NCBI GenBank assembly: GCA_034429745.1 | Contig: DAOUFY010000123.1 | Location: 895 to 64,894, forward strand | Direction of reading: 5' to 3' | Length of the DNA stretch: 64,000 nt | Source: Anaerolineales bacterium | Lineage (GTDB): Bacteria > Chloroflexota > Anaerolineae > Anaerolineales > DRKV01 | Shown here: one piece after another, positions 9,510-60,821 of the stretch | Layout of the letters: every line of letters starts with the position of its first letter | Numbering within the stretch: the stretch's first letter is position 1 | Notes under the pieces: generated by a model | Databases searched by the model: none | Seen by the model: only the letters and a program-made list of their open reading frames with translations | Told to the model about the DNA's origin: nothing | Position numbers and translations under genes: made by a program

Positions 9510-10340
9510 ATGAGAGAGAAAGATAACCATTATCCCCTAATCTTCATCAAGCTCGGTGGCTCTCTTATTACAGAAAAATCCAAGCCTTTAACTGCACGGC
9601 AGGATGTTATAGAAAGAGCAGCAAAAGAAATCTCTCGGGTTTGGATTCAAAATCCTTCCCTGCGCCTCTTAATCGGACATGGTTCCGGCTCTTTTGGGCA
9701 TAGCGAAGCGAAAAAGCACAACACCCAAGACGGGGTTCAGGATTCTGCGGGTTGGATGGGTTTTGCCCAAGTCTGGTATGCTGCTAATCTTCTCAATCGC
9801 ATGGTAATAGACGCTCTACAGCAGCAGGGGCTACCCGCCATTTCACTTTCACCCCTTTCGATGATCATCAGCCGCAGTAAAGAGATCACTGCTTGGAACA
9901 TTCAGCCTTTGCGCGCGGCACTCGAGGCAAGACTGCTGCCGGTCATTCAAGGGGATGTTATTTTTGATGAAAGGCTCGGTGGCTGCATACTTTCCACAGA
10001 AGATTTATTCGTTCATCTTGTCCCTCATTTCCGCCCGCAGCAAGTTTTGCTCGCCGGCATTGAGCCGGGAGTCTGGGCAGACTACCCCGCTTGTACTCGC
10101 CTGCTGGATGTGATTGCACCCAACACCGATCTCTTCGAAAACCATGCCAACTCCTCCTTGCAAGGCTCTAGCGCACCTGATGTAACCGGTGGAATGGCTG
10201 CTAAAGTTAAACAAAGTCTAGCTATGATTAAAAGCAGCAGCTCTACTGTCGTCTATATTTTTTCAGGAGAACAAGAAAAAGCCATCGAAAATGCCCTTCA
10301 AGGCAAACCTCAAGGTACAAAAATTACTGCATTTCTGTAA
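9510..10340 (+). CDS. Isopentenyl phosphate kinase (amino-acid-kinase fold)
   Basis: IKLGGSLIT and GHGSGSFGH motifs, and a 276-aa size typical of IPK. Confidence 0.7.
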   Translation: MREKDNHYPLIFIKLGGSLITEKSKPLTARQDVIERAAKEISRVWIQNPSLRLLIGHGSGSFGHSEAKKHNTQDGVQDSAGWMGFAQVWYAANLLNRMVIDALQQQGLPAISLSPLSMIISRSKEITAWNIQPLRAALEARLLPVIQGDVIFDERLGGCILSTEDLFVHLVPHFRPQQVLLAGIEPGVWADYPACTRLLDVIAPNTDLFENHANSSLQGSSAPDVTGGMAAKVKQSLAMIKSSSSTVVYIFSGEQEKAIENALQGKPQGTKITAFL

Positions 10341-10934: not shown

Positions 10935-11965
10935 ACTTGGATCTCCCTCCAGCCTTGTTTTGGCACAACGCCCGGCTTTGCGATGCACAAGCTATCCTCT
11001 CACTTATTCATAATGGTGCTCAAGCGCTTCACACCATTTCTACCATGCAACTCAAGGATGTTCAAGCCATCCTTCAAAGCCCGCGTTTTTCCGCAGAAGA
11101 AAGCTGCCTGATATTTATTAAAGAACAGCCTGATCCTATTTTGCTTGGCTTCTGTTGGTTGCTAAGCACCCCCCATCGCCCAAATCAAGCCGAAGTGTGG
11201 ATTCAAATCCACCCCAATCTTGATCAATTTGGCCTCTCCCCTCAAGTACTGGAAGACCCTCTCTTTGCGTGGCTCTTCTCTATCAGTCGCCAGCATTTTT
11301 CTTCTGCTCTATGCAACTACTCCTCTGATCCTACGCAAGGGTGTTGGTTGCTTGGAAGCAGCTGGCAGGATGATCAAACCCGCTGTTCCTCATTTTTGAA
11401 GGCTGGATTTTACCCTCTGCGATTCTCGCTTCACATGCGCCAAGAACTAAGTGATGTCCAGCGTTATTCTCTGCCTGCTTTGCCATCTCCATGCACCCTG
11501 CAGCCTTTCGATTCTAGCCATAGTCAGCATGTTTACCAAGTCTATCAAGAGAGCTTTCAAGATGATTGGCTTTTACAAGTTTCTTCCTTCCCTGCATGGC
11601 AGGAGTTATGGATCAACAAACCCAACTTCCTGCCCAAACTATCATTCATCGCTTTCGCTGAAAACGAACTGATCGGTTTTTTACTGACTGAAGAACACTC
11701 CACCGAAAATATACGCACCGCCCACATAAATATTCTGGGAATAAAACCTTCTTGGCGCAATCGAGGCATTGCCAAATACTTATTGCATTATGCGCTGCAT
11801 GCCTTTCACGCAAACGGCTTCGCTTATGCTACGCTGGACGCAGACCCAGATAGTCCCTATAATGTCGTAGAGTTTTATCAAAAGGCGAATTTTACCCCCA
11901 TAAGAATGAAAGTATATTTTGGTAAGCTTATAGAGAATCAACCAGCATACAACAATGTCAAATAA
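10931..11965 (+). CDS. GNAT-family N-acetyltransferase (two-domain)
   Basis: The C-terminal half has an acetyl-CoA loop, GIKPSWRNRGIAKYLL. The ATGA start overlaps the upstream stop. Confidence 0.6.
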   Translation: MNLDLPPALFWHNARLCDAQAILSLIHNGAQALHTISTMQLKDVQAILQSPRFSAEESCLIFIKEQPDPILLGFCWLLSTPHRPNQAEVWIQIHPNLDQFGLSPQVLEDPLFAWLFSISRQHFSSALCNYSSDPTQGCWLLGSSWQDDQTRCSSFLKAGFYPLRFSLHMRQELSDVQRYSLPALPSPCTLQPFDSSHSQHVYQVYQESFQDDWLLQVSSFPAWQELWINKPNFLPKLSFIAFAENELIGFLLTEEHSTENIRTAHINILGIKPSWRNRGIAKYLLHYALHAFHANGFAYATLDADPDSPYNVVEFYQKANFTPIRMKVYFGKLIENQPAYNNVK

Positions 11966-12954
11966 CTCACCGGCACATCGGCTGCTGCGCCGTAACGGCC
12001 ATCATCCGCAGTAAAAGTTGCAGCAGATGTAACCGCTCCAGCCTTAAAACGTAAGTTATGCATACCTGCGCTAACCCAAAGCGGCATTGTCAAACTTCCT
12101 GATTCTTGGGTAGCACTGGGTATTGTCGTGCAGCAGCGAACGTCTGTCGTATTATCCAACCCTATGCCAACGTGGGCAGTAGCACCAGAAGCAGAGGTAA
12201 CTCGATACATCAGTGAACTATAAATACATGCTCCGCTTGGGGCACCAATCATAAATTCAATCATGGGGTTCACTGTCGCCATGGTCGTACCGCTGCTGAT
12301 AGAATAAGTTGTCGCAGCATTATTATTGCTGTAATTTGGGCAAGAAAACCCGTGTCGCAGCACTTGATTATAATGGTTATACAGATAACGTTGGGTCAAT
12401 GTATCAAAACCCCAAATCCCCGCATACCCTGACCGATAGCCTCCATAAAATGATCCAAGATATCGGTACGTGCTGTCATCTGATTTCACCAATATGCCGT
12501 CTTGATAACCTAAGGGTACGCTGCGCGTTGTATCATTAACCCATTGGACTATAGCTAAAGCTACGGCTCCATTTTGCTCATATGCAAAAACATCATAAGG
12601 ATATCCATAAGGATAGGTTACTGCTCGCAAACTGAAACTGACATTTGAGAAAGTAAAAACATCCCACGTGCTCCCATCATATAAAGAGATCAAGTTGCCG
12701 CAATACGGGACAAAGAACAGGTCCGTAGCATAGCTTATCTCAGATTCTGGAACAGGGTTGGCTGCATTAAAGGACAACCTGCCTTGACATAACGAAGGCA
12801 TTACTGGAATTGAGGGGTTAATCAGTACATTTTTACTTACCGCTCCAATGTAGAGTTTTTCTGTATCAAGGGCGAAACCCATTTCCCCTGGCAGTAAGGT
12901 AGGTAAATCAGCTTGATTGCCGCGTCTAACCTGTATTCGAGTTCTTGTGGACAT
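11938..12954 (-). CDS. Phage tail fibre / receptor-binding protein
   Basis: The N-terminus IQVRRGNQADLPTLLPGEMGFALDTEKLYIG matches the Mtd_N/hyaluronidase-type tail-fibre N-terminal motif. It is the last gene of the module. Confidence 0.6.
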   Translation of the reverse strand: MSTRTRIQVRRGNQADLPTLLPGEMGFALDTEKLYIGAVSKNVLINPSIPVMPSLCQGRLSFNAANPVPESEISYATDLFFVPYCGNLISLYDGSTWDVFTFSNVSFSLRAVTYPYGYPYDVFAYEQNGAVALAIVQWVNDTTRSVPLGYQDGILVKSDDSTYRYLGSFYGGYRSGYAGIWGFDTLTQRYLYNHYNQVLRHGFSCPNYSNNNAATTYSISSGTTMATVNPMIEFMIGAPSGACIYSSLMYRVTSASGATAHVGIGLDNTTDVRCCTTIPSATQESGSLTMPLWVSAGMHNLRFKAGAVTSAATFTADDGRYGAAADVPVSYLTLLYAG

Positions 12955-12965
12955 TCCTCTCCTTT

Positions 12966-14264
12966 CTAGCCGGGTGGCGGTGATAAGGTGCCGCCATCCA
13001 GCGGTTCAGCTAAAAATTCATCTAAAAATCCAGCTCCGTCAAGATGCATATCAAACACCTCATCCATAAAGCAAGCCCCATCCAGGGTGGGATTTGTATA
13101 ATTATCCATATAGACTGCATCGGTCATTGAGGAGAAAAGCCATGGATTCAAGCTTTCCCCTTCTAATATACTTGAAGCTAACGAGATAGCTATCTGAACA
13201 CTCCCTACTTTCTGCGGCAGCACCGACAATGCCACTGCGTGAATCTTGGAAGTGAAAATTTCATCGGTAAATGGGTTATGAACTGAAACAATATCTCCAA
13301 GAAAGTAATGCTTGCCGTAATAGGCTGTTGGCGTTTGCACAACATCAAAGGTTAGTTTTGGGGTCGCAGAATGCTGCCTGAAAAAATTTTCAGCTAAGGT
13401 TGACAAGCCTTCATATGTAGCGGCTGCCGATCCATAAGTAAATGCTTCAATATCTCGCTTAACGCTGTAATCAGCTGAATAGCCTACAGCAACTTGACGA
13501 AGTATAGCTTCACCTCTGCCGGCTGCAATGACTGCCGTTACCTCTTGACTGCTTTTCAATTCATAGTATGGGTTCGCCATATTGCCTCTGGCTAATGCAA
13601 ACAAAACAATATTGCTCCGATCAGTCCCCATTCCGCCGTCATACCACCGAAATTCAAATCTTCCCCCACCGATATATGCCAACTCAAAGTTTCCGTTTCC
13701 AACAATAGCCAAACGCTGAAGCGCAGTCAACAAGTTGTGCAGCGGACAAGAAAAATCTATGCTCGCTCCTGAATCCGCACTCACTTGAACCTGAATGGGA
13801 AATAACGTATGCTGACCATCGCGCAGACGATGTGGTTCTAATCCCGCTGCTGTTGTCGCATTCCAAATTACCAGCTGTTTGGCTATCACTCCTGTTTGAA
13901 CTTGTAAAAACTGCGATCGATTCTGTACCCCACTTAAATAAGCCACAATGCGGGTCGAAAGCAGGAAATTAGGATGAAAAGCTTCTGCTTCAATCTGTGG
14001 CGCTTGATTTGCTGTAATAGAATATTTAATATCCAAGATGATGCCAAGATTTTCCTGATACCAACCAACCTGCTGACGCGGTTCGCACCGATAAAGTTGG
14101 ACAATATGATATACTTTGATATACTGGCAGGCAGGGTGAGAAGCAAGCACTGAAAAACGAATCGTACCTACCCCATTAATAATCTTTTCTGAAGTCAGTG
14201 AAAGAAAATCCGAAAATCGGGCTACAACCTCTCCACTTTGATTCATTATCACAAGATAAAGCAT
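12966..14264 (-). CDS. Phage tail-associated (Tal / Gp37-like) structural protein
   Basis: The N-terminal pattern MLYLVIMNQSGEVVARFSDFLSL...INGVGTIRFSV resembles tail-tip/endopeptidase-tail N-termini. Its position next to the fibre gene supports the call. Confidence 0.4.
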   Translation of the reverse strand: MLYLVIMNQSGEVVARFSDFLSLTSEKIINGVGTIRFSVLASHPACQYIKVYHIVQLYRCEPRQQVGWYQENLGIILDIKYSITANQAPQIEAEAFHPNFLLSTRIVAYLSGVQNRSQFLQVQTGVIAKQLVIWNATTAAGLEPHRLRDGQHTLFPIQVQVSADSGASIDFSCPLHNLLTALQRLAIVGNGNFELAYIGGGRFEFRWYDGGMGTDRSNIVLFALARGNMANPYYELKSSQEVTAVIAAGRGEAILRQVAVGYSADYSVKRDIEAFTYGSAAATYEGLSTLAENFFRQHSATPKLTFDVVQTPTAYYGKHYFLGDIVSVHNPFTDEIFTSKIHAVALSVLPQKVGSVQIAISLASSILEGESLNPWLFSSMTDAVYMDNYTNPTLDGACFMDEVFDMHLDGAGFLDEFLAEPLDGGTLSPPPG

Positions 14265-14283
14265 AGAATCTACATCATCCTAT

Positions 14284-14937
14284 TTAGTAAATGGGAGGAA
14301 TGCTGTTTTTGTTTTGCCACATCACAATCGCTTGGCTTCGATCAAATTGGTTTGTGATCTCTGCAAGCATATGCCGAAACGCAGCAAGCCGAGTCTGAGC
14401 TAACCGTTCGCATAAGTTCTTATCCAATATATCCCCTCGATTGGAAGCCGTGTACAGCAGCAAATTGCCCAACGTTCCCTGCAAAAGCAAATTAAGATGA
14501 GCTTGCAGGACTGTTGTTGTAGCCGCTTCATCCAAGCCTGCAATGGTATGCTGCTTTTCAAGCAGCAAGCGCAGCTCCTTGCCAGCTTGCGGAGGTGTTC
14601 CTGTGTTGGTTTGCAATGTAAGCACAAGCCTTTCTGCCACAACATCAATATTCCAGCGAACGATTTGGTTAGGTACTTGTTCAGCATAACATTTGGTGCT
14701 ATCCCAAGGATAATACACCTTGCGTACCCCCTCTGCAGCCATTGACTGCGGAAGCTCAATCTCGTTGCCCGAATTTACCAACTCAAAAACATACTCCTCA
14801 AGTCGAGGTAAAGATGCGCTGTATTCCTGCAAAGTAAAACGAAGGGCGAGTGCAATGCTCTCATCACTGTAAAGCATCTGCATTGAATCATTGAAATAAC
14901 TGAGGACTTGATTTTTGAAAAACAGAAAATCTGCCAT
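14284..14937 (-). CDS. Hypothetical protein of the phage structural module
   Basis: 217-aa ORF, co-directional and tightly packed with its neighbours. I recognise no motif. Confidence 0.4.
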   Translation of the reverse strand: MADFLFFKNQVLSYFNDSMQMLYSDESIALALRFTLQEYSASLPRLEEYVFELVNSGNEIELPQSMAAEGVRKVYYPWDSTKCYAEQVPNQIVRWNIDVVAERLVLTLQTNTGTPPQAGKELRLLLEKQHTIAGLDEAATTTVLQAHLNLLLQGTLGNLLLYTASNRGDILDKNLCERLAQTRLAAFRHMLAEITNQFDRSQAIVMWQNKNSIPPIY

Positions 14938-14943
14938 AATTTG

Positions 14944-15819
14944 TTATAGTGCTATTCGGGTTGGAGTAAAAGCGATCGCAACCCGAGTCGTTTCCCCGCA
15001 GTTTGCCCCTTCCACCTTAATACTATTGATTCCCCCAAGTGCTTCTGGTGCCGGTAAGAAAGCAAAACTTTCCAAATCCGAATCCGCTGAGAGGGCTGGA
15101 AGTAAGGACTCCGAACCTTTCATAATGGTTTTATAACCCGGCCGCAAATCTATGAATACCGTTTGGTTTTGTGCTATAGTTGTATTGAGATCGAGTTTCA
15201 TACCGCCACTTAAATTCGTAATAATTGGGTGAGTAATAGGACCGCGCAACGAAAACGGATAAGGATAGGCGAGCCATGTGCCGTTATATACAATATCCTT
15301 CGTTGAAGGAATATCATTTTGATAGAAAGTGGTTATCGTTTGGGTTGTATATTGAGTCCATACTGGGTTTGGTGCAACCAATGTAAAGTGTGCAGTCTGT
15401 AAAAATGGTGAAGGAGAATTGATGTCTTTACTTTTAGGTTTTGCACTAAAACTCAATGAAGTACAGAATACCTGCATTCGCCATGCGGTGCCTTCTGGCA
15501 GCCGGCACTCAAGGATGGAGGGAATAAGCGTATGATAAGGGCGCAGAACTTGTATTAAACTGCTGCGCCGCTGATAATACTCTGCTGAAGTTTGCGCCCT
15601 CATCGTCAATTGCACCTTGAGCTGACGCGGCGACAGATGAAACCCAAAATCACTTGCCCCATGCTGCAGTGGCGTAATTTCAAGATGTCGTTCAATCGGC
15701 GGCAGCGCCAACCCTTCTATCTGCTCATAAATAAAATTTTCTATTCCCAAGGATATCGAGAGAGCCAATGACGGATCATAAAGAGTAAAATTATGGAGTT
15801 CCTCTATCAAGTTGGACAT
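14944..15819 (-). CDS. Phage distal-tail (Dit)-like protein
   Basis: The C-terminal pattern IVYNGTWLAYPYPFSLRGPITHPIITNLSGGMKLDLNTTIAQNQTVFIDLRPG...SFAFLPAP...NSIKVEG is typical of phage tail family / distal tail proteins. Confidence 0.45.
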   Translation of the reverse strand: MSNLIEELHNFTLYDPSLALSISLGIENFIYEQIEGLALPPIERHLEITPLQHGASDFGFHLSPRQLKVQLTMRAQTSAEYYQRRSSLIQVLRPYHTLIPSILECRLPEGTAWRMQVFCTSLSFSAKPKSKDINSPSPFLQTAHFTLVAPNPVWTQYTTQTITTFYQNDIPSTKDIVYNGTWLAYPYPFSLRGPITHPIITNLSGGMKLDLNTTIAQNQTVFIDLRPGYKTIMKGSESLLPALSADSDLESFAFLPAPEALGGINSIKVEGANCGETTRVAIAFTPTRIAL

Positions 15820-16546
15820 AAGCTACTCCTTGAAAAACCGCAGCAATATAGAGAACTTCGCCAAAGCAAAGCCATATATCTTCCCATCCGCCTGATTGTA
15901 CGATAATCATCTTTTCATATCCCAATATCGCCGATTCATATAAGACACCAACCACCGGCGCTAGAACCGAAGGTGCCGAGCGGATGTTAAGCAGAGTAAC
16001 CTTTACTCTTGCTGTTCCTTTTTCATCTAATGTACGGCTGCTGAGCGTTGGGCTTTGTCCCTCTCCCGTAGGAGAGGGACAGACCAGAGAAGAAAAGGAG
16101 GTTTGGGAGAAGGATGAAGGTAGGGCAGATTCTTGCAGGTAAGGCAGTGGGTCAATGTACCCTTTATAAGCATCATTTTTGGCATAAGTGAGCTTACGCA
16201 AACCAAAATGTAAATGCGGACCTGTAGAAAACCCACTGTTTCCCATAAAACCAATTAAGTCGCCTGCTTTTAGCGTAGTTTTGTCTTTAGCAATCAGCCG
16301 CTGCAAATGACAATAATATGACGTAAGGCTCTCTTTGTGGGTGATCGTACAATACAAGCCATAACCCTGCGGATCAAAGGGGTGAATCTGCAGCAGTCCT
16401 GCATCCGCAGCATATATCGGATCGCCCAATGCTCCCGCAAAATCAATTCCGTTATGACCTGGAAAACCAAATTGTGCATACATTGTTGGGTTTTCACCAA
16501 ATTGTTGGGTAATTACCCTTGAAGAGGTAGGAAACTGCATTGCCAA
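15791..16546 (-). CDS. M23 (LytM) peptidoglycan endopeptidase with an SH3-like C-terminal domain
   Basis: M23 motifs GHNGIDFAG and GNSGFSTGPHLHFG. The linker contains an in-frame REP-type hairpin (see findings). Confidence 0.8.
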   Translation of the reverse strand: MAMQFPTSSRVITQQFGENPTMYAQFGFPGHNGIDFAGALGDPIYAADAGLLQIHPFDPQGYGLYCTITHKESLTSYYCHLQRLIAKDKTTLKAGDLIGFMGNSGFSTGPHLHFGLRKLTYAKNDAYKGYIDPLPYLQESALPSSFSQTSFSSLVCPSPTGEGQSPTLSSRTLDEKGTARVKVTLLNIRSAPSVLAPVVGVLYESAILGYEKMIIVQSGGWEDIWLCFGEVLYIAAVFQGVAYVQLDRGTP

Positions 16547-16553
16547 GCCTTAT

Positions 16554-18626
16554 TTATGGTACATTGTGTTTATACAAACCGCGATAATCCATTGCCCCTA
16601 CGGCAAAGAAAAAGCGTACCTTTATTGGCATCGTATCATTTGTGAACATTAACCCAGAGACTGGGTTAGCTACTGAAAAAATTTCTGGTGCGCGTCCATA
16701 ACGATAGCCAATACCAATAGTGGGATACAGCAGTGGATCGGCGACTGCAGCCCAATTCTTAGGATTCGTCCACAAATCAACCACAATTACCCGTGAGCGC
16801 GCCGAGCGCATACGCTCCGTCAAGGTATCGCCTTCAGCCCAAACGTTATCCAGATAATTAGCAGAACCAGACTGAGCTGCACCCAAAATCTGCAATGCTG
16901 TATTTTCCAGCTCATTAGGCACAAGCAAATATTTTGGCGCAGTAAGCATTCCCAATGCCGCTGCCGAAGCACCCGAAGCTGCAAACTCCGTTTGATCGCG
17001 CATTGCCTGCCGCGTGGCTGCCCAAGCGTTGGAAGAAAGCGGACTAGAACCTAAATTCCCATGATGAACGCTGTCAAACAAGGTATAGCCATCCGAGAGG
17101 ATTGGACCTACCGCCGAGCCACTTGTGGCATCTGTAAAAATTTCCGCAACAGCTTTGGATAACGTTAAGTAAGCCCCTTGAGCCAAGGCAGCCGGAGCAG
17201 TACGCAGTTTGCGGGTATCATCTTTATCAATAGCTTCAATGGTAATGCCCAAATAACCACCTTTCTTTATAAAAGAGGCTGTCTCTCGCTTATCATCCCA
17301 AGCTAATTCAGGGTAAGCATTGCCTTCATCAATGGTAGGCAATGCTCCTATGCCCGCTAAAGTGATCCATTTGATATCTTGCAATGTTTGGTAGTCTTCC
17401 TCGCGGACAATTGGCTCAAACCATTTGGGGAATTTCGCAAATTCATTGACCACTCGCTTGTTCAACGCATCCGCTACCAAACTCGACATAGTCGAAGAAT
17501 TTACATTAGCAAACATCACTCGTTCAGGATGGAACACACCACTTAATTCATAATCTCCCGAGATAAGATTATAAAATTCTCGAATGCCATTCAGCGGTTT
17601 TATGCCATTCGGTGGACGAACACCATCAAGCAAAGCCTCAAACGCTAAGGTTAATTGATCAAAACCAGTCATTCCACCTTGAATTTGGGAAGACCTCGGG
17701 GCAACATTGCCTATGTGAATTACCTGTTCCTGAACTAAAGAGGCTAAATATTCTTTTTCAGCTTTAATGGCTTGAGCAACCTCTGCCGGCGAGGAGTAAA
17801 GCTGACATTGCTGCAGCAGCTTATCTTTCGCCACCTGAGGTAAATCCGATGCCAAAATCAAAGACTGATTCGCAATAAAACTATACGAGCGAAGAGCTTG
17901 CTGCATGTGAGCTAATCGTTGCTCCATTTCCGCTGCAGAAGAAGCAGTCAAAGAAGCTTCAATATCCTGCCCTAATTTGGCTTCATCCTCACCAACCATA
18001 TCTCTTGATGATTCTATTGTCATATCATTCTCCATATCATTTGTAGCAAACTGAAAATTACTAGGGAGCTTTTTCTTTTCGTTCCCTATCATTCTGTCCG
18101 AGCTCAGCAGTTGTAAAAATCTTCCATCTGCCGCCGGCTGAAAAACAATATCAATTGATTCAATATGCTTAATTGCCGTTATAACTGTAGCTTCCGACGA
18201 TACTTCTAGCGAGGGGTAAAAGACAAGCGACAAACCAATATCCGGCGGCTTTGGGTCAGCAAGGATTTGCAGAAGCAAATCAGCTATCGCCATCCCGTCT
18301 TCTGTATCATAAAGTTGAATAGTGCCATAAACAGCTTGATCCTGCTCGTCCCAGGTTGAATGGATTGTCTTGCCAACCAAGTTGCGAAGCGAGGGTGGCT
18401 CACAAGGTTCGGCGTGGTCAATAAAAACAGCTTTATCATTGAAGGCGCCTTCCTCAACCGCTAACCGTAATGTCTCCGCTGCTATGCATATTGGTGCCGG
18501 CGAATTGTCAGCATAACGAATAAACCCAGCCCGAACAAAGCGGCACTTAAAAGCTATAGGTTCAAACTTCTTGTCTTCAAGAGCATGCAGCAATTTGCCA
18601 GCTGAAGATAAACGAAGAACTTTCAT
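16554..18626 (-). CDS. Putative prohead protease/scaffold fused to a major capsid protein
   Basis: 690 aa: an N-terminal ~170-aa globular part, an acidic/coiled-coil middle (EMEQRLAHMQQAL...) and a ~330-aa C-terminal capsid-like part. It lies directly downstream of the portal gene. Confidence 0.5.
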   Translation of the reverse strand: MKVLRLSSAGKLLHALEDKKFEPIAFKCRFVRAGFIRYADNSPAPICIAAETLRLAVEEGAFNDKAVFIDHAEPCEPPSLRNLVGKTIHSTWDEQDQAVYGTIQLYDTEDGMAIADLLLQILADPKPPDIGLSLVFYPSLEVSSEATVITAIKHIESIDIVFQPAADGRFLQLLSSDRMIGNEKKKLPSNFQFATNDMENDMTIESSRDMVGEDEAKLGQDIEASLTASSAAEMEQRLAHMQQALRSYSFIANQSLILASDLPQVAKDKLLQQCQLYSSPAEVAQAIKAEKEYLASLVQEQVIHIGNVAPRSSQIQGGMTGFDQLTLAFEALLDGVRPPNGIKPLNGIREFYNLISGDYELSGVFHPERVMFANVNSSTMSSLVADALNKRVVNEFAKFPKWFEPIVREEDYQTLQDIKWITLAGIGALPTIDEGNAYPELAWDDKRETASFIKKGGYLGITIEAIDKDDTRKLRTAPAALAQGAYLTLSKAVAEIFTDATSGSAVGPILSDGYTLFDSVHHGNLGSSPLSSNAWAATRQAMRDQTEFAASGASAAALGMLTAPKYLLVPNELENTALQILGAAQSGSANYLDNVWAEGDTLTERMRSARSRVIVVDLWTNPKNWAAVADPLLYPTIGIGYRYGRAPEIFSVANPVSGLMFTNDTMPIKVRFFFAVGAMDYRGLYKHNVP

Positions 18627-18653
18627 CTGCCTTCTTCCCTAAAATTTACCTAT

Positions 18654-18995
18654 TCATTCCGCAGCAGTAAAAGACTTCCCTATGAAAGGTGCAGATCTAA
18701 AAATCTTATGCGAAAGTTTTGAAACCCCCAACTGAGTTGTATAAGCAAAGACAATCAACAGCAATTCCGCGAGCTTCTCGGCTTGAATATCCAATGCTGC
18801 AATATCGGTTTGTGGTGAAAACAAATTCAATCCAATCAGCCCTGCCAAAGCTAAAAAATTGAGCAGTAAAGAATAAATCTGAGCCTCTCCATCTTTGACA
18901 ATAGACAACGTTTTAAGAATATTGATCAAGGCAGCAATGAGTGCCGACACCCCAGAAAGGGCGGCAAATTGAGTGAAAATGTCAGTTATTTCCAT
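18654..18995 (-). CDS. Small three-TM membrane protein, holin-like
   Basis: MEITDIFTQFAALSGVSALIAALINIL... with about three hydrophobic helices. Start set at internal ATG 18995, because the ORF-track start overlaps the portal gene. Confidence 0.35.
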   Translation of the reverse strand: MEITDIFTQFAALSGVSALIAALINILKTLSIVKDGEAQIYSLLLNFLALAGLIGLNLFSPQTDIAALDIQAEKLAELLLIVFAYTTQLGVSKLSHKIFRSAPFIGKSFTAAE

Positions 18996-19011
18996 CAGTT
19001 GTTTTTTCTCC

Positions 19012-20331
19012 TTATTTAGAATTATTATTGGGGTAAATTTCTTGTAGAATTTTCTCAAGCAGCTCTTCACTTAAGGGATTCCCGCCGGCATTCAGGATCA
19101 ACGAAGTAAACAATTTAGTCAATGTTGGGCTTGAGTTCGGAAGCTGCGATCCAAGCACTTGGTAAGTTTGGGCTAACATATGGGCAGCCTTTGCCAGTGA
19201 TTCATTATCCGTACGCGAAATATCCGGAAGCAGTGCAGTAAACAGCTTGTTGTAGTTCCGTTCTGTTAATTGCGGCACCTTTCCCAATTGATAAGCGCGT
19301 TGATAGGCTTGATAAGTAATATCCTGCAGGATATAAAGGAAATATTGCTGACGGCGCAGCAGGTGCCGTTCCGTTGGAGCTTGCATCGCTGTTGCGGTAG
19401 CGAGGTTTGCGTCTGCAGCTTCCCCGCGCCAATGAGGAGGAAAGCCGGCACCGGCATCAATCATTCCGCGCACCGCTTTTAAGTCTGCTTGTGCATCATT
19501 TGCATTGAGATTAGGCGTTACTGCTTGCCACTGCTCGGCATCATCCTTGATGATGATCGCCCCTGCTTCAGGAGGATGGGCATATTGCTGCTGTTTTTCG
19601 CGAATCTTATTCGTTGGCACAGTAACCAACCATAAAAAGGAACGCACAGCCCAATGCAAGCGCACTCGATCTTCCAACATGCGCGAGTAGCGCATGAGCC
19701 ACGGCAGCATTGAAGTTAAATCCGATTCCCCCAGCAATGCTCCCAACGGACGATTGATCGCATAATGCAGCATTACCGCTCCTTCTTGAGGTGATTCCGG
19801 GTGTTGCGGTGAGAGCCAGCGAGTTGCCTCTCCTAGCAAGTTCACTTCTTCATAAGCTAATTCTGTCTCATAATCGTTCGCTGCCGACTCAATCCGCCGA
19901 ATGCGGTCTTTTGTTACAAAACGAATGTAGGACATGCCATCCTGAGGATTGCGAAAGAGAAGCACAAACAAATCCCCCGCTCGTGTCAATTCATCACACA
20001 TTGCCTCTAAACGCAAATGTAGTTGATTCTTGGGATGATGCCAGAACTCATTGATAAAACGGCGCATAGAGCGGTAAGGTGATGAGAGTGAAATCCCATC
20101 TCCTGCAACGTAATCCGATGTGATCGCAACAATCCGCCAGGCAAGCGGATTTTTCCGCCATGCGGTTAGCGCATCATTATAAAGTTCCGCGACTTTTGCT
20201 GAATCGTAATCATGCGGGCTGACGGTCGTCGAAATCCAAACTTGCGGATATGCATCATCCACTTGAGGAGGTTTGACTGCCGTCGCGCGTTGAGGATAAA
20301 TTATTTTCTTGATTGTGTTAAGGATAGACAT
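19012..20331 (-). CDS. Phage portal protein
   Basis: 439 aa and first gene of the module. It contains NPLAWRIVAITSDYVAGDGISL, which resembles conserved portal N-terminal regions. The position upstream of the capsid gene supports the call. Confidence 0.55.
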   Translation of the reverse strand: MSILNTIKKIIYPQRATAVKPPQVDDAYPQVWISTTVSPHDYDSAKVAELYNDALTAWRKNPLAWRIVAITSDYVAGDGISLSSPYRSMRRFINEFWHHPKNQLHLRLEAMCDELTRAGDLFVLLFRNPQDGMSYIRFVTKDRIRRIESAANDYETELAYEEVNLLGEATRWLSPQHPESPQEGAVMLHYAINRPLGALLGESDLTSMLPWLMRYSRMLEDRVRLHWAVRSFLWLVTVPTNKIREKQQQYAHPPEAGAIIIKDDAEQWQAVTPNLNANDAQADLKAVRGMIDAGAGFPPHWRGEAADANLATATAMQAPTERHLLRRQQYFLYILQDITYQAYQRAYQLGKVPQLTERNYNKLFTALLPDISRTDNESLAKAAHMLAQTYQVLGSQLPNSSPTLTKLFTSLILNAGGNPLSEELLEKILQEIYPNNNSK

Positions 20332-20369
20332 AAAAGTTTTGCAAATTTTCCTGATCTTGGATTAATCTA

Positions 20370-20399
20370 ATTATAGTACATTTGTTCTATAAATGTCAA
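20370..20399 (-). promoter_or_regulatory. Consensus sigma70 promoter (TTGACA-18 nt-TATAAT) driving the portal-to-fibre operon
   Basis: Reverse complement of 20370-20399 is TTGACAtttatagaacaaatgtacTATAAT. The -10 box ends about 38 nt upstream of the portal ATG. Confidence 0.6.
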
Positions 20400-20400: not shown

Positions 20401-20429
20401 TTTACACCCTTAAGGATTGATGGTATAAT
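20401..20429 (+). promoter_or_regulatory. Promoter TTTACA-17 nt-TATAAT with an extended -10 TG, driving the Zn-ribbon/CA-tail/rSAM operon
   Basis: TTTACAcccttaaggattgaTGgTATAAT was read directly. It sits back-to-back with the phage-module promoter. Confidence 0.6.
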
Positions 20430-20491
20430 GAAAACATCAGAGGTGTTTGGCAGAACATTCGGTTGCTTTGTTATCAATAGAGGAGGGTGTT

Positions 20492-20857
20492 ATGTCTGCT
20501 ATTCGAATCATTGCTTATATCGCCGCGGCAATCTTGATATTTTTCGGCGTTCTTTTCATTTGGGCAACCTTTAGCCCTCAAGGTAACTTGGGCTGGCTGC
20601 TGATTGGTGTAATTTCCGTGCTAATAGGCTTCGGGTTGATTTGGTTCGCTCAGCGCCGCAAGGCAGCCGAGGAGCAAGAAAAGAATATTACCTATAAAGT
20701 TGATCTTTCTGGTGATATTAAGCTAGAAAGCCTCAAATGCAAAGCTTGCGGTGGTCCACTAACACCTGACAACGTTAAAATGGTGGCCGGTGCTCCCGTA
20801 GTAACCTGCCCCTACTGCGGTGTATCTTATCAACTTACCGAAGAGCCTAAATGGTAA
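20492..20857 (+). CDS. Small membrane protein with a C-terminal zinc ribbon
   Basis: Two TM helices, then CKACGG...CPYCG (CxxC...CxxC). Start at ATG 20492 behind AGAGGAGGG. The ORF-track start at 20447 is a TTG. Confidence 0.6.
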   Translation: MSAIRIIAYIAAAILIFFGVLFIWATFSPQGNLGWLLIGVISVLIGFGLIWFAQRRKAAEEQEKNITYKVDLSGDIKLESLKCKACGGPLTPDNVKMVAGAPVVTCPYCGVSYQLTEEPKW

Positions 20858-20868
20858 GGAGGCTCTTC

Positions 20869-22551
20869 ATGAATAAAAGATTATTCACAATTATTTTTAT
20901 CACCTTACTGCTGCTGTCTTTCCCTGCTGCAGCTCTGGCACAACATTATTCTTTTTCCATAGACGAGATGATCGTCCATACCTACTGGCACGAGGACGGC
21001 ACGTTATCCTTAGACTACACCATTACTTTCACTAATCATCCTAATGGTGATCCAATTGACGTTGTTGACATTGGATTGCCTAACAAAAACTATGATCTCA
21101 GTACTGCCCGTGCCGAAATTAATGGTGTGCCTTTATCGCGTATTGAAGATTCTCCCTACGTAACCGGCATAGCTGTTGAGCTTGGTAACCAAGCAATTCA
21201 ACCTGGAAAAAGTGGCACACTTCATTTCTCCATCTCTGGAATTCGCGATGTATTATACGTAGATGATCAAGACCCCCAATATGCCTCAGCGGTCTTTAAA
21301 ACAACTTGGTTTGACAGTAGTTTTGTCTCCGGAACAGCAAAAATAACTGTTACATATCACCTCCCCCCCTCAATTCAGCCTGAAGAACCGCGCTGGCATA
21401 GTGCCCCATCAGGTTTTTCGGCTGAACCCACAGCCAACATTGACAATCTAGGCAGAATTACCTATACTTGGGAAAACCCAGCTGCTAACCCTTCAGAAGG
21501 TTATCTCTTTGGGGCATCATTCCCTGCTCGCAATATACCGCCTACCGCCATTCAAAAAACTGCAATCCCAAATGAGACGTTCGACCAACTAGTTAACTGC
21601 CTGTGCAATCCCTTTGGATTTTGTATCATCGTAATCTTCTTCGTCGCACTATCCATTGTTCCTCAAGTCATCATCGCCCGTCGCCGCTCAATGAAATACC
21701 TGCCCCCTTCAATCTCCATTGAAGGGCATGGCATCAAACGCGGCTTAACTGCAGTTGAAGCCGCAGTACTGATGGAACAGCCAATGGAAAAAATCCTTAC
21801 CATGATTTTATTCTCTGTCCTTAAAAAGAACGCTGCTGAAATCACCTCGCGTGAACCGCTTGAGATTAAGGTAGCCGATCCCCTTCCCGAAGACCTCTAC
21901 CCCTATGAAAAAGAATTTCTAAAAATTTATAGTGAAATAAAAGATAAAAGGCAACAGCAAATAGCCCTGCGGGATTTAATGGTCAATCTTGTTAAAAGTT
22001 TAGCCGAAAAAATGAAAGGCTTCAGCCGCAAAGAGACGGTGGATTATTACAAATCCATTTTAGAAAAAGCGTGGCAGCAAGTTCAAAGTGCTCAAACCCC
22101 TGAAGTGAAAAGCGAATTGTATAACCAGAATTTAGATTGGACAATATTAGATCCTAACTTTGAACGACGAACGAGTGAGGTATTTCGCACGGAGCCCATT
22201 TTTGTTCCGAACTGGTGGTGGCGTTATGATCCCACCTTTGCTCGTGCTAGCACAATGCACCGAGCCAGCCCAACCAGTACTGCTGCCCCCTCCGTCCCGC
22301 AAGGCAGCATCTCGCTGCCTACCTTGCCCGGCTCCACTTTCGCTGCCAATGTAGTTGGCGGAATGCAAAACATTGCCGGCAATTTAGTTGGGAACATCAC
22401 CAGCTTTACCAGTTCCATCACCAATGCCACCAACCCTCAGCCTAAAACCAGTTCTTCATCTTGGAAGAAAAGCAGTGGTGGCGGTTGTGCTTGCGCTTGT
22501 GCCTGTGCGTGCGCCGGATGTGCTTGTGCCTGTGCCGGCGGTGGTCGCTGA
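20869..22551 (+). CDS. Secreted/membrane protein with DUF2207-like architecture and a C-terminal (Cys-Ala)n tail
   Basis: Signal peptide MNKRLFTIIFITLLLLSFPAAALA, an N-terminal beta-rich ectodomain (YSFSIDEMIVHTYWHEDGTLSLDYTITF), a TM helix, and a tail reading SSGGGCACACACACAGCACACAGGGR. Start at 20869 behind TAAGGAGG. Confidence 0.65.
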   Translation: MNKRLFTIIFITLLLLSFPAAALAQHYSFSIDEMIVHTYWHEDGTLSLDYTITFTNHPNGDPIDVVDIGLPNKNYDLSTARAEINGVPLSRIEDSPYVTGIAVELGNQAIQPGKSGTLHFSISGIRDVLYVDDQDPQYASAVFKTTWFDSSFVSGTAKITVTYHLPPSIQPEEPRWHSAPSGFSAEPTANIDNLGRITYTWENPAANPSEGYLFGASFPARNIPPTAIQKTAIPNETFDQLVNCLCNPFGFCIIVIFFVALSIVPQVIIARRRSMKYLPPSISIEGHGIKRGLTAVEAAVLMEQPMEKILTMILFSVLKKNAAEITSREPLEIKVADPLPEDLYPYEKEFLKIYSEIKDKRQQQIALRDLMVNLVKSLAEKMKGFSRKETVDYYKSILEKAWQQVQSAQTPEVKSELYNQNLDWTILDPNFERRTSEVFRTEPIFVPNWWWRYDPTFARASTMHRASPTSTAAPSVPQGSISLPTLPGSTFAANVVGGMQNIAGNLVGNITSFTSSITNATNPQPKTSSSSWKKSSGGGCACACACACAGCACACAGGGR

Positions 22552-22584
22552 TCAAGAGCAGAGCGATCTGCATAATGCCATTCT

Positions 22585-23931
22585 ATGATAAACCAATGGT
22601 TCTCCAAGATCCTTAAACCTCCACCGCCAGCATCTCCACCCAAAAGCACCTTACCAAAACCAGGGCTTTATGCCTATGCGCGTAACGATTCCTGCGAAAA
22701 AATGACTCTTCACTTACGAGTTGAGGAAGATGGCAGAGGTACATTGGTGCTCAATGCCAATCGCATCTTTCACCTCAACCCAACCGCTGCCAGCATGACA
22801 TTTTTTATTCTCGAAGATACTCCACCAAACGAAGCTTTAAATAAAATTCTTAAAACATACCACGGCAATCGCAAACAAATAGAACAGGATTTTATAAACT
22901 TTCGCGAAACAATCCAAGCTCTCATTGAACACCAAGCAGCTTGCCCCATCTGCGATCTTAACATTAATGTCAACCCTCCATTCAGCACAGAACCTTCGGC
23001 TCCCTATCGCATGGATTTAGCACTCACATATAGCTGCAATAATCACTGCGTTCACTGCTACAACGAGACTGACCGTCATTTACAAAGCTTATCGCTCGAT
23101 CAATGGAAAAAAGTGATTGACCGCCTCTGGGAATTGCGTATTCCTCACCTCGTTTTTACCGGCGGTGAACCAACACTATCACCATATCTTCCTCAGTTGA
23201 TCGCTTATGCTCATGCTAAAGGATTCATTTGTGGCTTAAACACAAATGGACGGCGGCTAAGTCAACCAACTTATCTAGATTCTCTCATTGCTGCTGGGTT
23301 AGATCATGTCCAAATCACCCTAGAATCACACGATCCATCAATACATGACAATATTGTTCAAAGCTGCGGCGCTTGGCAAGAAACTACTGCCGGCCTTCGC
23401 CTTGCCCTGCAATCCCCCCTTTATGTGATGACCAACACAACTCTCCTTCGTCATAATACCCCCTACCTGCAAGAGACATTGCAATTTTTAGCCGAGCTTG
23501 GAGTGCCAACCATCGGGTTAAATGCACTTATTTTCGCCGGGCGAGGCAAAGAAATTCAAAACCCCTTGGCTGAAACCGAACTCGAAACTTTACTGACCAT
23601 TGCTAAGGAAATCACCCAAGATCATCAGCAGCGTTTGATCTGGTACACCCCCACACAGTACTGCCATTTTGACCCTGTAGAACAGGATTTAGGTATCAAA
23701 GGTTGTACAGCTGCACTTTACAATATGTGCATTGAACCGAATGGCAACGTTTTGCCATGTCAGTCATACTTTCAACCGGTCGGAAATATTCTAGTAAATC
23801 AATGGGAAGAAATATGGCAGCATGATCTCTGCCAATGGCTGCGTCAACGCCGCTTTGCTCCTCAGAAATGCCGCGGTTGCCCCTTGCTCAAAGAATGCGG
23901 TGCCGGTTGCCCCCTTGCTTTAGATCGCTAA
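22585..23931 (+). CDS. Radical SAM / SPASM-domain maturase with an N-terminal PqqD-like (RRE-like) extension
   Basis: Radical-SAM motif CNNHCVHC (Cx3Cx2C). The C-terminal CRGCPLLKECGAGC matches the SPASM pattern Cx2Cx5Cx3C exactly, preceded by CIEPNGNVLPC. About 130 aa precede the core. Confidence 0.85.
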   Translation: MINQWFSKILKPPPPASPPKSTLPKPGLYAYARNDSCEKMTLHLRVEEDGRGTLVLNANRIFHLNPTAASMTFFILEDTPPNEALNKILKTYHGNRKQIEQDFINFRETIQALIEHQAACPICDLNINVNPPFSTEPSAPYRMDLALTYSCNNHCVHCYNETDRHLQSLSLDQWKKVIDRLWELRIPHLVFTGGEPTLSPYLPQLIAYAHAKGFICGLNTNGRRLSQPTYLDSLIAAGLDHVQITLESHDPSIHDNIVQSCGAWQETTAGLRLALQSPLYVMTNTTLLRHNTPYLQETLQFLAELGVPTIGLNALIFAGRGKEIQNPLAETELETLLTIAKEITQDHQQRLIWYTPTQYCHFDPVEQDLGIKGCTAALYNMCIEPNGNVLPCQSYFQPVGNILVNQWEEIWQHDLCQWLRQRRFAPQKCRGCPLLKECGAGCPLALDR

Positions 23932-49630: not shown

Positions 49631-52600
49631 ATGAGTACTACTCAACCTATTGCGATTGTTGGTTTAGGTGCCATTTTGCCTGATGCGCTAAATGTTCAGG
49701 ATTTTTGGCAAAACCTGCTTTCCGCTCGCTATAGCATTAGCGAGGTTACTAAAGACCGCTGGGACGAAGCTCTGTATTACGACTCTGACCCAAGCGTTCC
49801 TGATAAAACTTATTCAAAAATTGGCGGGTTTGTGCGCGGTTTTCGTTTTGAGCCCCTAAAGATGAAGCTGCCTATTCCACCTAATGTCGCCGCTGTCATG
49901 GATGAAGCCCAGCAATGGGCTATCGTTGCCAGCTATCAAGCCTTGCAGGATTATGGTTACCCTCAACGCTCACTTGATCCAGAAAGGGTGGCGGTTATCT
50001 TTGGCAACTCTATGGCTGGCGAATATCATTATCGAACCAATATGCGCATCTTTTTACCAGAGTACGAACAAGCGCTGGCTTCCTCTGAAGCTTTTCGCCA
50101 ATTAACCCCCGAAATTCAAGCGGCAATTTTGGAAGGGTTTAAATCCCAAATCCGCTCACGTATCCCCAACATCACCGAAGATACCATGCCCGGCGAGCTT
50201 TCAAATATCATCGCCGGCAGGGTCGCTAACTTATTCAACTTCAGTGGGCCCAATTTTGTTACTGATGCAGCTTGTGCCTCATCCTTCGCCGCACTTCAAG
50301 CAGCTATCGAAGGCTTGCAATCATACCAATTTGATGCTGTGCTTAGCGGCGGCATTGACCGCAATATGGGCGTTGAATCTTATGTAAAGTTCTGCAAAAT
50401 CGGCGCTCTTAGCCCGGATGGATCCCGCCCGTATGCCGATGGAGCTAATGGCTTCGTGATGGGTGAAGGTGCAGTGGTTTTCTTGCTTAAACGCCTAGCC
50501 GATGCCGAAAAAGATCAAGATCGCATCTATGCCGTTATCCGCGGAATAGGCGGCAGCAGTGATGGGAAAGGCAAAGGTATTACTGCTCCCAACCCATTAG
50601 GTCAGCAGCGAGCTATTGAACGTGCTTGGAAAAACGCTGCTCTATCTCCGAGTACTGCAACTCTCATCGAAGGTCATGGCACATCAACTCGAGTAGGTGA
50701 TGTGGTTGAAGTGAACACATTGAATACGGTGTTCTCACCCTTCAATCTGCCAACCGCCTCGATAGCTTTAGGTTCAGTAAAATCAAACATAGGCCATCTT
50801 AAAAGCGCAGCTGGAGCAGCTGGCTTGTTAAAAACCGTGCTTTCCCTTTATCATAAAAAACTCCTCCCCAACGCTAACTTCCATCGTCCAAATCCTAATT
50901 TAGACTTTGACCGTCTTCCTTTCTATGTGCTGACCACAGTAAAAGATTGGGATCAACCTAAAGCAGATATCCGCCGTGCCGGCATAAGTTCATTTGGGTT
51001 TGGTGGTACAAACTTCCATCTTGTCGTGGAAGAATATCTGCCCGGCTATGCCTTAAAGGGTTCCTCTTCTTACAGCGGCGTTGCATTGTCTGTTGCTCCT
51101 ATTCAATCAGCTTCCCCTGCCCACGTTAATGCGCAAACGATCCCTCAATCAATACCTGCAACACAAGTACAGTCAGCTTCTCCCTCACCAGCACCTCAGC
51201 CTGCTAATGCTGATATTCAAGCCACTGTCCTCAAACTCGTCGCTGAAAAAACCGGCTACCCTGAGGATATGCTCGACCTAGACCTCGACCTCGAAGCTGA
51301 CCTCGGTATTGATACCGTCAAGCAAGCTGAACTCTTCGCCACCATCCGCCAGCATTTCGGCATCCCCCGCCGCGAAGACCTGCGCCTCGCTGACTACAAT
51401 ACCCTCGCTAAAGTCATCCAATTCATGCAAGAAGCTCTCTCAGGCAGTTCACCTGCCCAAGCACCTCAACCAACAACAGCACCGCAGACAGCTCAGTCGG
51501 CTTCTCCCTCACCAGCACCTCAGCCTGCCAATGCTGATATTCAAGCCACTGTCCTCAAACTCGTCGCTGAAAAAACCGGCTACCCTGAGGATATGCTCGA
51601 CTTAGACCTCGACCTTGAAGCTGACCTCGGCATTGACACCGTCAAGCAAGCTGAACTCTTCGCTACCATCCGCCAGCACTTTGGCATCCCTCGCCGCGAA
51701 GACCTGCGCCTCGCTGACTACAACACCCTCGCCAAAGTCATCCAATTCATGCAAGAAGCCCTCTCAGGCAGTTCACCTGCCCAAGCACCTCAACCTTCAC
51801 CAGCACCGCAGGCAGCTCAGCAAGCTTCTCCCTCCCCAGCACCTCAGCCTGCTAATGCTGATATTCAAGCCACTGTCCTCAAGCTCGTCGCTGAAAAAAC
51901 CGGCTATCCTGAGGATATGCTCGACCTAGACCTCGACCTCGAAGCTGACCTCGGTATTGATACCGTCAAGCAAGCTGAACTCTTCGCCACCATCCGCCAG
52001 CATTTCGGCATCCCCCGCCGCGAAGATCTGCGCCTCGCTGATTACAACACCCTCGCCAAAGTCATCCAATTTATGCAAGAAGCCCTCTCAGGCAGTTCAC
52101 CTGCCCAAGCACCTCAACCAACAGCAGCTGCAGCCATATCCGTTGAAAAGGCTACCTTGCCTCCTTCTGCACCTCAGGCGTCAGCCCAGCCCAGACAGCG
52201 TGGATTGCGCGGAATTCTCTTCCTCAGTGCAACCGATCCCCAATCTCTACAGCAGCAGTGCGAACAAGCAATTAATGCAACCCGCAATGGGATTTTGCCA
52301 AATCAAGCTCCACTTTCCACTCATGAACTTTCTCAACCCGAACGATTAGCTATAGACTATGGCAGCGCTGAAGAACTTATAAAACGCGCTGAAAAAGCTC
52401 TTTCGGCTTTTGAAAACCCATCGCTTTGGCAAAATTTAACCGGGCAAGGCATTTATCGCTTCAGCGGTTCTAATAAAGACCACAAAGTAGCTTTCCTTTT
52501 CCCCGGTCAAGGTTCTCAATATGCCAATATGCTGCGCGACTTATTTGATGTTTCTTCTTCGGTAAGAGATACTTACGCCGAAGCAGATGCCGTTATGACA

Positions 52601-58204: not shown

Positions 58205-58256
58205 AACTCAAAGGCTTTTCCCATCCTTCCCATAAAGAAGGTTATCATATAAAATC

Positions 58257-58285: not shown

Positions 58286-58325
58286 CTCTTCTCCGTATCA
58301 TTCAACCTTTGCCTCGATCTCTCTT

Positions 58326-60782: not shown

Positions 60783-60821
60783 CGGCTTCACTATTGGAAT
60801 AAATAAAAAAGGACAACCATC

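Follow-up and report, generated by a model that had tools for sequence, protein, structure and literature searches.

A terminase-less phage head, short-tail and lysis module under purifying selection in an Anaerolineales chromosome

The 64-kb stretch of Anaerolineales DNA analysed here (positions 895–64,894 of contig DAOUFY010000123.1, referred to as the window) carries a module of phage structural genes among host genes, with no terminase gene beside it. This raises the question of whether the module is a prophage in decay or a device that is being maintained and, if it is maintained, what a phage head and tail without packaging genes could be used for. An earlier reading of the same DNA, made from the sequence alone (the sequence-only reading), had proposed either a recently truncated prophage or a domesticated particle-forming element. 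We consider it probable, at roughly 60%, that the locus is the domesticated remnant of a short-tailed temperate Anaerolineae phage, co-opted as a particle-making device. Coordinates are those of the window unless a related locus is named; related loci are labelled L001 to L199.

The module consists of eight intact open reading frames (ORFs), all on the minus strand, running from 11938 to 20331 (ORF coordinates):

19012–20331, minus strand: portal protein, 439 amino acids (aa) (phrog_10963, E = 1.5e-27)
18654–18995, minus strand: small membrane protein, holin-like, 113 aa, three hydrophobic segments
16554–18626, minus strand: fusion of prohead protease, scaffold-like linker and HK97-type major capsid protein, 690 aa (PF25209, E = 3e-30)
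15791–16546, minus strand: M23 peptidoglycan endopeptidase with a conserved C-terminal domain (PF01551, E = 5e-24)
14944–15819, minus strand: distal tail protein, Dit (PF05709, E = 8e-6; structure match)
14284–14937, minus strand: SU10-type head-to-tail adaptor, 217 aa (family alignment against PF24175)
12966–14264, minus strand: Gp37/Tal-like tail hub protein (PF14594, E = 1.4e-13)
11938–12954, minus strand: fibre or receptor-binding protein with an Mtd_N N-terminus (PF18454, E = 1e-8)

These are the eight co-directional phage-like genes described in the sequence-only reading. Their positions and intact frames were confirmed, and family scans reproduced its assignments for the portal, the capsid fusion, the M23 peptidase, Dit, the Gp37/Tal-like protein and the Mtd_N fibre. 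The reported convergence of the fibre gene with the GNAT gene also follows from the ORF coordinates, with a 28-nt overlap at 11938–11965. No terminase was found in the 64 kb by tblastn with the terL of relatives or with a hidden Markov model (HMM) of the family terL, nor by Pfam scans of the ORFs flanking the module and ten further large ORFs of the window. Family scans of the module and its flanking ORFs found no integrase, replication or packaging-redirection genes, and there is no tRNA in the window, so that the reported lack of terminase, integrase and tRNA holds across the 64 kb. Rfam families gave no match between 9000 and 26000, and a nucleotide search with the module gave no match among GenBank phages. 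The module is thus a coherent head, short-tail and lysis gene set without packaging, replication, integration or regulator genes.

On the portal side the module is flanked by genes for a small membrane/zinc-ribbon protein, a 566-aa membrane protein and a radical SAM/SPASM enzyme. At the distal end lie genes for an ABC permease, an isopentenyl phosphate kinase, a phosphoribosyltransferase and the GNAT protein, all of them ordinary host genes. The same arrangement is present in locus L197, in the order adaptor (cut by the contig end), Dit, M23 peptidase, capsid fusion, small protein and portal, followed divergently by genes for a 121-aa and a 560-aa protein, a radical SAM enzyme, a LysM protein and an Rrf2 protein. 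Both the gene order and the junction of portal and host genes are those of the window, and no terminase is present at the L197 junction. The closest relative of the 566-aa neighbour is encoded on L197 (87% identity by BLASTP, 88% in the codon alignment). This made it possible to compare window and L197 codon by codon; the ratio of nonsynonymous to synonymous divergence (dN/dS) and the synonymous divergence (dS) below are Nei-Gojobori estimates, with 95% confidence intervals (CI):

Six module genes, 1950 codons: concatenated dN/dS 0.092 (95% CI 0.076–0.110), dS 0.576; per gene dN/dS 0.047–0.161, dS 0.46–0.68
Five flanking host genes, 1537 codons: concatenated dN/dS 0.087 (95% CI 0.071–0.104), dS 0.592; per gene dN/dS 0.017–0.109, dS 0.40–0.78
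Single module genes, dN/dS: portal 0.081, small protein 0.047 (96% identical), capsid fusion 0.083, M23 peptidase 0.161, Dit 0.074, adaptor 0.131

No stop codon was found in the 1950 codons of the L197 module copies. The equal dS of module and flanking genes at the same junction indicates vertical inheritance in place, after the loss of the terminase. The module is therefore fixed at one chromosomal junction and has co-diverged with the flanking host genes, and its six comparable genes are under purifying selection as strong as that on these host genes. The box in its promoter, described below, has been under purifying selection as well. For comparison, the terL-bearing phage pair L101/L194 gave dN/dS values of 0.12–0.14 for portal, capsid and terL; the chromosomal module is at least as constrained. 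Ratios between the window and the more distant loci L006 and L009 were not used, as dS was near saturation. The synteny and dN/dS check proposed with the sequence-only reading thus came out in favour of the second of its two options: vertical inheritance, intact frames and purifying selection on the six comparable genes support a domesticated particle-forming element.

The expression signals of the module were located directly upstream of the portal gene:

20370–20399, minus strand: sigma70 promoter TTGACA-18-TATAAT, 12 of 12 consensus positions, 39 nt upstream of the portal ATG
20401–20429, plus strand: divergent promoter TTTACA-17-TATAAT, 11 of 12 positions, back to back with the portal promoter
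20375–20388, minus strand: GAAC-N4-GTNC box AGAACAAATGTACT, a putative operator, within the spacer of the portal promoter

The near-perfect promoter that had been noticed back to back with a host operon promoter was thus confirmed. It had been taken for a consensus host promoter, and this attribution had to be given up. The composite TTGACA-N4-[TC]AGAAC-N4-GT[AG]C-TATAAT is found upstream of the portal gene not only in the window (39 nt) but also in L197, in L006/L007 (133 nt) and in L009 (152 nt), and terminase-bearing relatives carry promoters built in the same way, with the box, 0.8–1.25 kb upstream of terL. A small terminase subunit (phrog_1889, E = 1e-6) is encoded between this promoter and terL in L002. 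From the position of the promoter upstream of terL in relatives, and of terS between the two in L002, the parental order is deduced to be box-promoter, terS, terL, portal. The portal promoter is therefore the phage family's own, brought to abut the portal gene by the loss of terS and terL.

The box is the sole match to GAAC-N4-GTNC in the window. It reads GAAC-N4-GTAC and has one mismatch to the Gram-positive-type LexA (Cheo) consensus GAAC-N4-GTTC, the motif bound by LexA in Bacillus subtilis and, more generally, in Gram-positive bacteria (PMC3323433). Many terminase-bearing relatives carry the perfect palindrome AGAAC-N4-GTTCT in the promoter. In 2.27 Mb of family loci there are 27 copies of this palindrome where 1.3–2.2 would be expected, a 12- to 20-fold enrichment, and most copies lie in promoter-like contexts upstream of ORFs. 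On this evidence the Anaerolineae phage family may rely on host LexA instead of a repressor of its own. Between window and L197 the -35 hexamer, TAGAAC, the G-T-C of the right half-site and the -10 hexamer are invariant; the five differences in the 30-nt promoter all fall in the spacer or on the third base of the right half-site. We infer from these motifs that the module operon is under LexA control.

Two further features of these promoter regions were noted. The palindrome, a general feature of promoters in L001–L003, L010–L081 and L101–L180, is sometimes paired, about 120 bp apart, near ORFs of both strands (for example L049 5815–5946 and L067 4538–4684). In addition, L006 (4178–4250) and L009 (55–125) have a common leader hairpin, CCGGGGAAAG...CTTTCCCCGG, between box-promoter and portal. 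In the terminase-bearing L101 the promoter is directly followed by a different GC hairpin and then a U-run (538–600). Such leader hairpins could act as terminators under antitermination control. Window and L197 are without the L006/L009 leader.

The relatives collected comprise 73 genome loci and 80 IMG/VR loci, together with several exact-protein contexts. Homologues of the capsid fusion number in the hundreds, at about 50% identity, and many are encoded on contigs of 0.2–1 Mb; the few with a name come from Anaerolineales/Chloroflexota metagenome-assembled genomes (MAGs). A search for terL was positive in 105 of the 181 sources (180 loci and the window), the gene lying mostly directly upstream of the portal gene; most sources without terL are contigs cut near the portal. 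The parent phage family is thus widespread in Anaerolineae. The tail set of adaptor, M23 peptidase, Dit, Gp37-like protein and fibre is limited to the window, L006/L007, L009 and the terminase-bearing L008, L194 and L195. No tail-tube or tape-measure gene was found in the contigs of the sister clade, including L008, which has terL and many small early genes. As both genes are missing from terminase-bearing phages of this clade as well, their absence, correctly observed in the sequence-only reading and there counted among the missing parts, is a feature of a short-tailed lineage and no sign of truncation.

In a neighbour-joining (NJ) tree of portal and capsid, the window groups with L006 and L009, and the terL-bearing L008, L194 and L101 form the sister group. 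Bootstrap values were as follows:

Window + L006 + L009: portal and capsid 0.755; portal alone 0.885; capsid alone 0.32
L006 + L009: portal and capsid 1.0; portal alone 1.0; capsid alone 1.0
L008 + L194 + L101: portal and capsid 1.0; portal alone 1.0; capsid alone 1.0

The direct fusion of promoter and portal without a terminase is found in the window and in two other genomes (L006/L007 and L009) besides the orthologous L197. The proteins of L006 and L009 differ by 25–60%, with all frames intact; L006/L007 has host-like genes upstream of the promoter, and in L009 host genes follow directly after the last module gene. The terminase-less form is thus no isolated accident of the window genome. 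A common insertion site was considered and rejected, since the genes flanking L006/L007 and L009 differ from those of the window. L043 and L052 were dismissed as terminase-less loci because divergent terminases are present. L168–L170 were likewise dismissed; they have a 437–449-aa ORF upstream of the portal and a tape-measure-sized gene and belong to a different kind of phage. L048, L051 and L068 are apparently terminase-less, but their assemblies are rich in frameshifts.

The single gene products fit a short-tailed particle. The portal is 59–67% identical to the portals of relatives. The capsid fusion matches PF25209 (Phage_capsid_4) at residues 377–686 and the phrog_15531 protease at residues 66–301; the confident N-terminal part of its structure model matches the T4 gp21 prohead protease (5jbl, E = 5e-4), the model being poor outside the protease domain (predicted local distance difference test score, pLDDT, 52). 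H71 and S133 are invariant in 25 homologues. The AlphaFold2 (AF2) model of Dit (pLDDT 72.6) matches the baseplate protein of mycobacteriophage Douge (8zdo_m, E = 1e-10, template-modelling (TM) score 0.63), and also SPP1 Dit (2x8k, E = 2e-9) and the monocin tip (9j1k_K). The 217-aa protein, present as reported but listed as an unknown in the sequence-only reading, has no direct Pfam match itself; its family has more than 100 members, and 17 of the 23 aligned members match PF24175 (SU10_adaptor, best E = 1e-18), which identifies it as the head-to-tail adaptor, of the SU10 type. The Gp37/Tal-like protein is 39–41% identical to its counterparts in L006, L008 and L009, and the fibre is conserved with L006 and L009 at the N-terminus only. 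Profile searches with adaptor, Tal-like protein and capsid against PDB sequences gave nothing useful, and with Dit only a weak match to Bxb1 gp23. The tail hub protein had no match in 50,697 phage records, a viral scan with the Dit profile found nothing, and a metagenome scan with this profile gave contigs that were for the most part too short to include the portal junction. Taken together, sequence families and models suggest a podovirus-like particle in which a tip complex of the siphovirus type, seated on the adaptor, forms the short tail.

Two genes are predicted to serve in lysis. Gene callers start the small membrane protein at the ATG at 18995 and not at the GTG at 19070. It had no match in family scans; its homologue in L009 sits after the M23 gene at the end of the operon, the position of a lysis cassette, and with its three hydrophobic segments the protein is putatively holin-like. 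The M23 gene lies directly upstream of Dit, in the position of a tape measure, in the window, L008 and L195, and beside the holin-like gene in L009. Its product is a candidate endolysin or virion-associated lysin. The M23/Dit gene pairs were found at 14944–16546 in the window, at 11580–13300 in L008 and at 3786–5570 in L195. The M23 domain also matches PHROGs of M23-bearing tape measures, and in a tail without a tube the peptidase may take the part of a minimal tape measure or ejection protein.

In the explanation that we favour, the domesticated remnant would have retained the head genes (portal and protease-scaffold-capsid fusion), the short tail (SU10-type adaptor, Dit, Tal-like hub and fibre), the lysis genes (the holin-like protein and the M23 peptidase) and the family promoter with its LexA-type box. 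It would have lost terS and terL, which lie between promoter and portal in relatives, along with every gene for replication, regulation and integration. The box would be bound by a repressor acting in trans, most likely host LexA, which would keep the operon off until DNA damage lifts the repression in a fraction of the cells. The fusion protein would then form capsids on the portal by self-processing, the short tail would be completed by adaptor, Dit, Tal-like hub and fibres, and the holin-like protein and the M23 peptidase would lyse the cell and release podovirus-like particles. As release through lysis is altruistic, such a system could be selected only through a benefit to kin, as is proposed here in analogy to tailocins, colicins and gene transfer agents (GTAs). 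The particles would act by adsorption, cell-wall attack or delivery, without DNA packaging encoded by the locus itself. Since assembly of a short tail is expected to take place on the portal vertex, the head genes could not be shed in the way of R- and F-type tailocins, whereas the terminase could. This suggests a rule by which devices derived from podoviruses cannot drop the head.

Several points weigh against the favoured explanation. L197 is the single close orthologous locus and ends inside the adaptor gene, so that the evidence for selection covers six genes and not those of the Tal-like protein and the fibre. In more distant relatives the module is absent from the same junction: in L198, where the homologue of the 566-aa protein is 63% identical, the 338 nt upstream of the small divergent gene hold neither portal nor box-promoter, and in L199, from the same MAG as L009, unrelated genes occupy the position next to a homologue that is 55% identical. 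The junction with this host operon is thus specific to the lineage of window and L197. The monophyly of the three terminase-less lineages is only moderately supported, the capsid alone giving 0.32. The right half-site of the box is GTAC or GTGC and not GTTC; no lexA or recA was found in the fetched DNA with LexA and RecA probes, and the protein on the box may instead be a phage-type repressor supplied by a co-resident relative. Finally, well-studied podoviruses join the tail to the head after DNA packaging; empty tailed particles may therefore assemble poorly, which favours a terminase supplied in trans.

This last point leads to the main alternative, which we consider unlikely but not far-fetched: a GTA-like or helper-dependent locus whose particles are filled with DNA by a terminase from another chromosomal locus or from a co-resident phage of the family, and which would mediate gene transfer or be completed by its helper. 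The strong constraint on head and portal (dN/dS 0.08) would suit it, as would the abundance of terL-bearing kin in Anaerolineae, with four copies in one MAG (L059, L061–L063). No terminase, however, is present in the 64 kb or at the L197 junction, and known GTAs keep the terminase in the cluster; steady purifying selection is not easily, though still conceivably, reconciled with reliance on a terminase that is unlinked or foreign. Much less probable is a role in interference, in which capsid, portal and tail proteins induced by the SOS response sequester the components of related phages or mis-assemble with them, in the manner of a non-mobile phage-inducible chromosomal island (PICI). The promoter and operator shared with the phage family would provide for co-induction with related prophages, and that family is abundant in the same hosts, but tail, adaptor and lysis genes are equally constrained, which a role for one or two proteins would not obviously need, and no known defence-system architecture was recognised (PADLOC was not run). 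A use of only part of the module, in which for example M23 peptidase and holin serve for autolysis or as a bacteriolysin cassette, or the capsid forms a compartment, while the rest hitch-hikes, is the weakest of the functional alternatives and more improbable still. Although M23 enzymes with a cell-wall-binding domain such as lysostaphin do act as bacteriolysins, and HK97-fold shells do serve as encapsulins, all six comparable genes have dN/dS values of 0.05–0.16 and none is relaxed, where hitch-hikers should have decayed at a dS of about 0.6. The idea of a recently truncated prophage in neutral decay, its frames still intact only as a matter of time, drew on the lack of terminase, integrase, repressor and replication genes. 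It is rejected as scarcely tenable: L197 shares the same truncated module and junction at a dS of 0.58, equal to that of the flanks, dN/dS is about 0.09 with zero stop codons in 1950 codons, and the sister lineage of L006 and L009 has kept the promoter-portal architecture although its proteins have diverged to 67–75% amino-acid identity.

A hairpin with a perfect 11-bp stem was found in the linker of the M23 gene:

16056–16081: 11-bp perfect-stem hairpin in the M23 linker

The sequence-only reading had described it as a host-type repetitive extragenic palindromic (REP) element. The hairpin is real, but it is not a REP element, being present as a single copy: no further copies were found in the 64 kb, even at three mismatches. 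It is kept in L197 (at about 1625–1655) through a compensatory pair of changes, T to C and A to G, which alter the encoded amino acids. The folding energies are -25.7 kcal/mol in the window and -28.8 kcal/mol in L197 (z = -4.8 and -5.0). It looks like a selected RNA or DNA structure within the operon, and may be an element for intra-operon RNA processing, stability or attenuation.

Among the neighbouring genes, the trio at 20447–23931 (zinc-ribbon protein, 566-aa protein, radical SAM/SPASM enzyme) has the same order in L197, L198 and L199. The 566-aa protein ends in GGGCACACACACAGCACACAGGGR and has no family assignment; its homologues number more than 4600, and those with a name are from Anaerolineales/Chloroflexota MAGs. 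The possibility that this divergent neighbour is an inverted terminase was rejected on account of its signal peptide, transmembrane segment, Cys/Ala-rich tail and number of homologues. The radical SAM/SPASM enzyme has a weak PqqD-like match at its N-terminus (E = 0.006). In both the window (9510–10340) and L009 (11561–12382) a gene for isopentenyl phosphate kinase (57% identical) is found no more than 3 kb from the distal end of the module, in opposite orientation and with different intervening genes; this proximity, ancestral linkage or chance, is suggestive only and was not used as support. Further away, at 49631–60816, a 2857-aa ORF followed by a gene for a PfaD-like enoyl reductase/acyltransferase forms a synthase cluster of the polyunsaturated fatty acid (PUFA) or polyketide type.

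Other members of the phage family showed further arrangements. L070 (758–7951, MAG TGS_CHL14) is a 7-kb mini-element without terL that starts with the box-promoter and is followed by host genes; it holds genes for a 311-aa protein of unknown nature, a capsid fusion divided between two frames, the adaptor and the portal, as well as two small genes, and is a second, unrelated terminase-less form. The four separate terL-portal-capsid copies L059, L061, L062 and L063 are from MAG R24_80 (DAOUFX01). In L001/L044 (13791–16223), on a 1.06-Mb contig, the tail region of a related element is broken up by two transposase genes of the IS110 family. L021, L069 and L078 are binned in MAGs labelled Zixibacteria, Deltaproteobacteria and Paludibaculum, and are either mis-binned Anaerolineae contigs or evidence of a wider host range.

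Beyond the module itself, the locus brings to light a large and uncharacterised family of small phages in Anaerolineae, with a LexA-type operator in the promoter of the main operon. Induction under host control may thus be widespread in a poorly studied and environmentally abundant phylum, and the promoter, operator and eight genes offer a concrete target for the DNA-damage response of Chloroflexi.

How does such a locus compare with known systems? GTAs of the RcGTA type are vertically inherited head-tail clusters under purifying selection, controlled by host regulators and released by lysis of a subpopulation. Like them, the module is chromosomal, vertically inherited and under purifying selection, a head-and-tail cluster without replication or integration genes. 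Their clusters include terS and terL, and they resemble siphoviruses in having tail tube and tape measure, whereas this Chloroflexota locus has neither terminase nor tube, and neither terS nor terL is found elsewhere in the window. A literature search gave no GTA description in Chloroflexi, with incidental co-mentions only, and no description of an element such as this one in Anaerolineae. With tailocins (R/F-type pyocins, monocin) the module shares domesticated structural genes and, putatively, a lysis cassette, and its Dit model matches the monocin tip; induction by DNA damage and altruistic release, established for tailocins, are proposed here from the genes alone. Tailocins are without head genes, whereas here portal and protease-capsid fusion have been kept, under constraint equal to that on the tail genes.

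Domesticated defective prophages, as described by Bobay et al. in 2014, are reportedly vertically inherited remnants with dN/dS values well below 1. The module is a remnant of this kind, lacking essential phage functions and held at an orthologous position under purifying selection with intact frames. It differs from typical examples in that a coherent virion and lysis set lacks exactly the packaging genes, has kept its native promoter and operator and recurs in at least three lineages. PMC6379469 refers to the concept of domesticated defective prophages. As in LexA-controlled phages of the GIL01 type, a putative operator of the Gram-positive LexA type overlaps the phage promoter; in the window the box has one mismatch, the module has no phage regulator of its own, and a role of LexA is predicted from sequence. 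The tectivirus GIL01 itself is a LexA-controlled phage. GAAC-N4-GTTC is reportedly also the motif of a Dehalococcoides LexA. With capsid-forming PICIs and other satellites the module has in common that a small chromosomal element encodes its own capsid and portal while part of the life cycle is lacking. Satellites, however, are mobile, with integrase, replication genes, terS and borrowed tails, whereas this element has tail genes, no integrase, replication, packaging-redirection or mobility genes, and flanks that have co-diverged with it. The closest cultured phages, among them Microcystis phage Mae-JY22 and, in the same tally, Stx2/933W-type and Bordetella-host phages, have a protease/scaffold-capsid fusion of the same Pfam family, with at most 27% identity in the capsid.

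To our knowledge, domesticated phage particles are of two kinds, headless tails (tailocins) or complete sets of head, tail and terminase (GTAs), and we know of no GTA or tailocin in Chloroflexota. In its proposed working the locus would be most like a tailocin or a GTA, yet it lacks the defining feature of each. It is conceivable, though we put it clearly below an even chance, that it represents an undescribed class of nanomachine: a head-bearing, terminase-less device derived from a podovirus, encoded in a chromosomal operon with an SOS-type operator and serving either DNA-free killing or delivery or as a shell filled by terminases borrowed from resident phages. The promoter-to-portal architecture in at least three Anaerolineae lineages would in that case be a recurrent or ancient solution and not a one-off. 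A locus that has kept head, short tail and lysis genes and dropped packaging under selection would extend the known outcomes of phage domestication.

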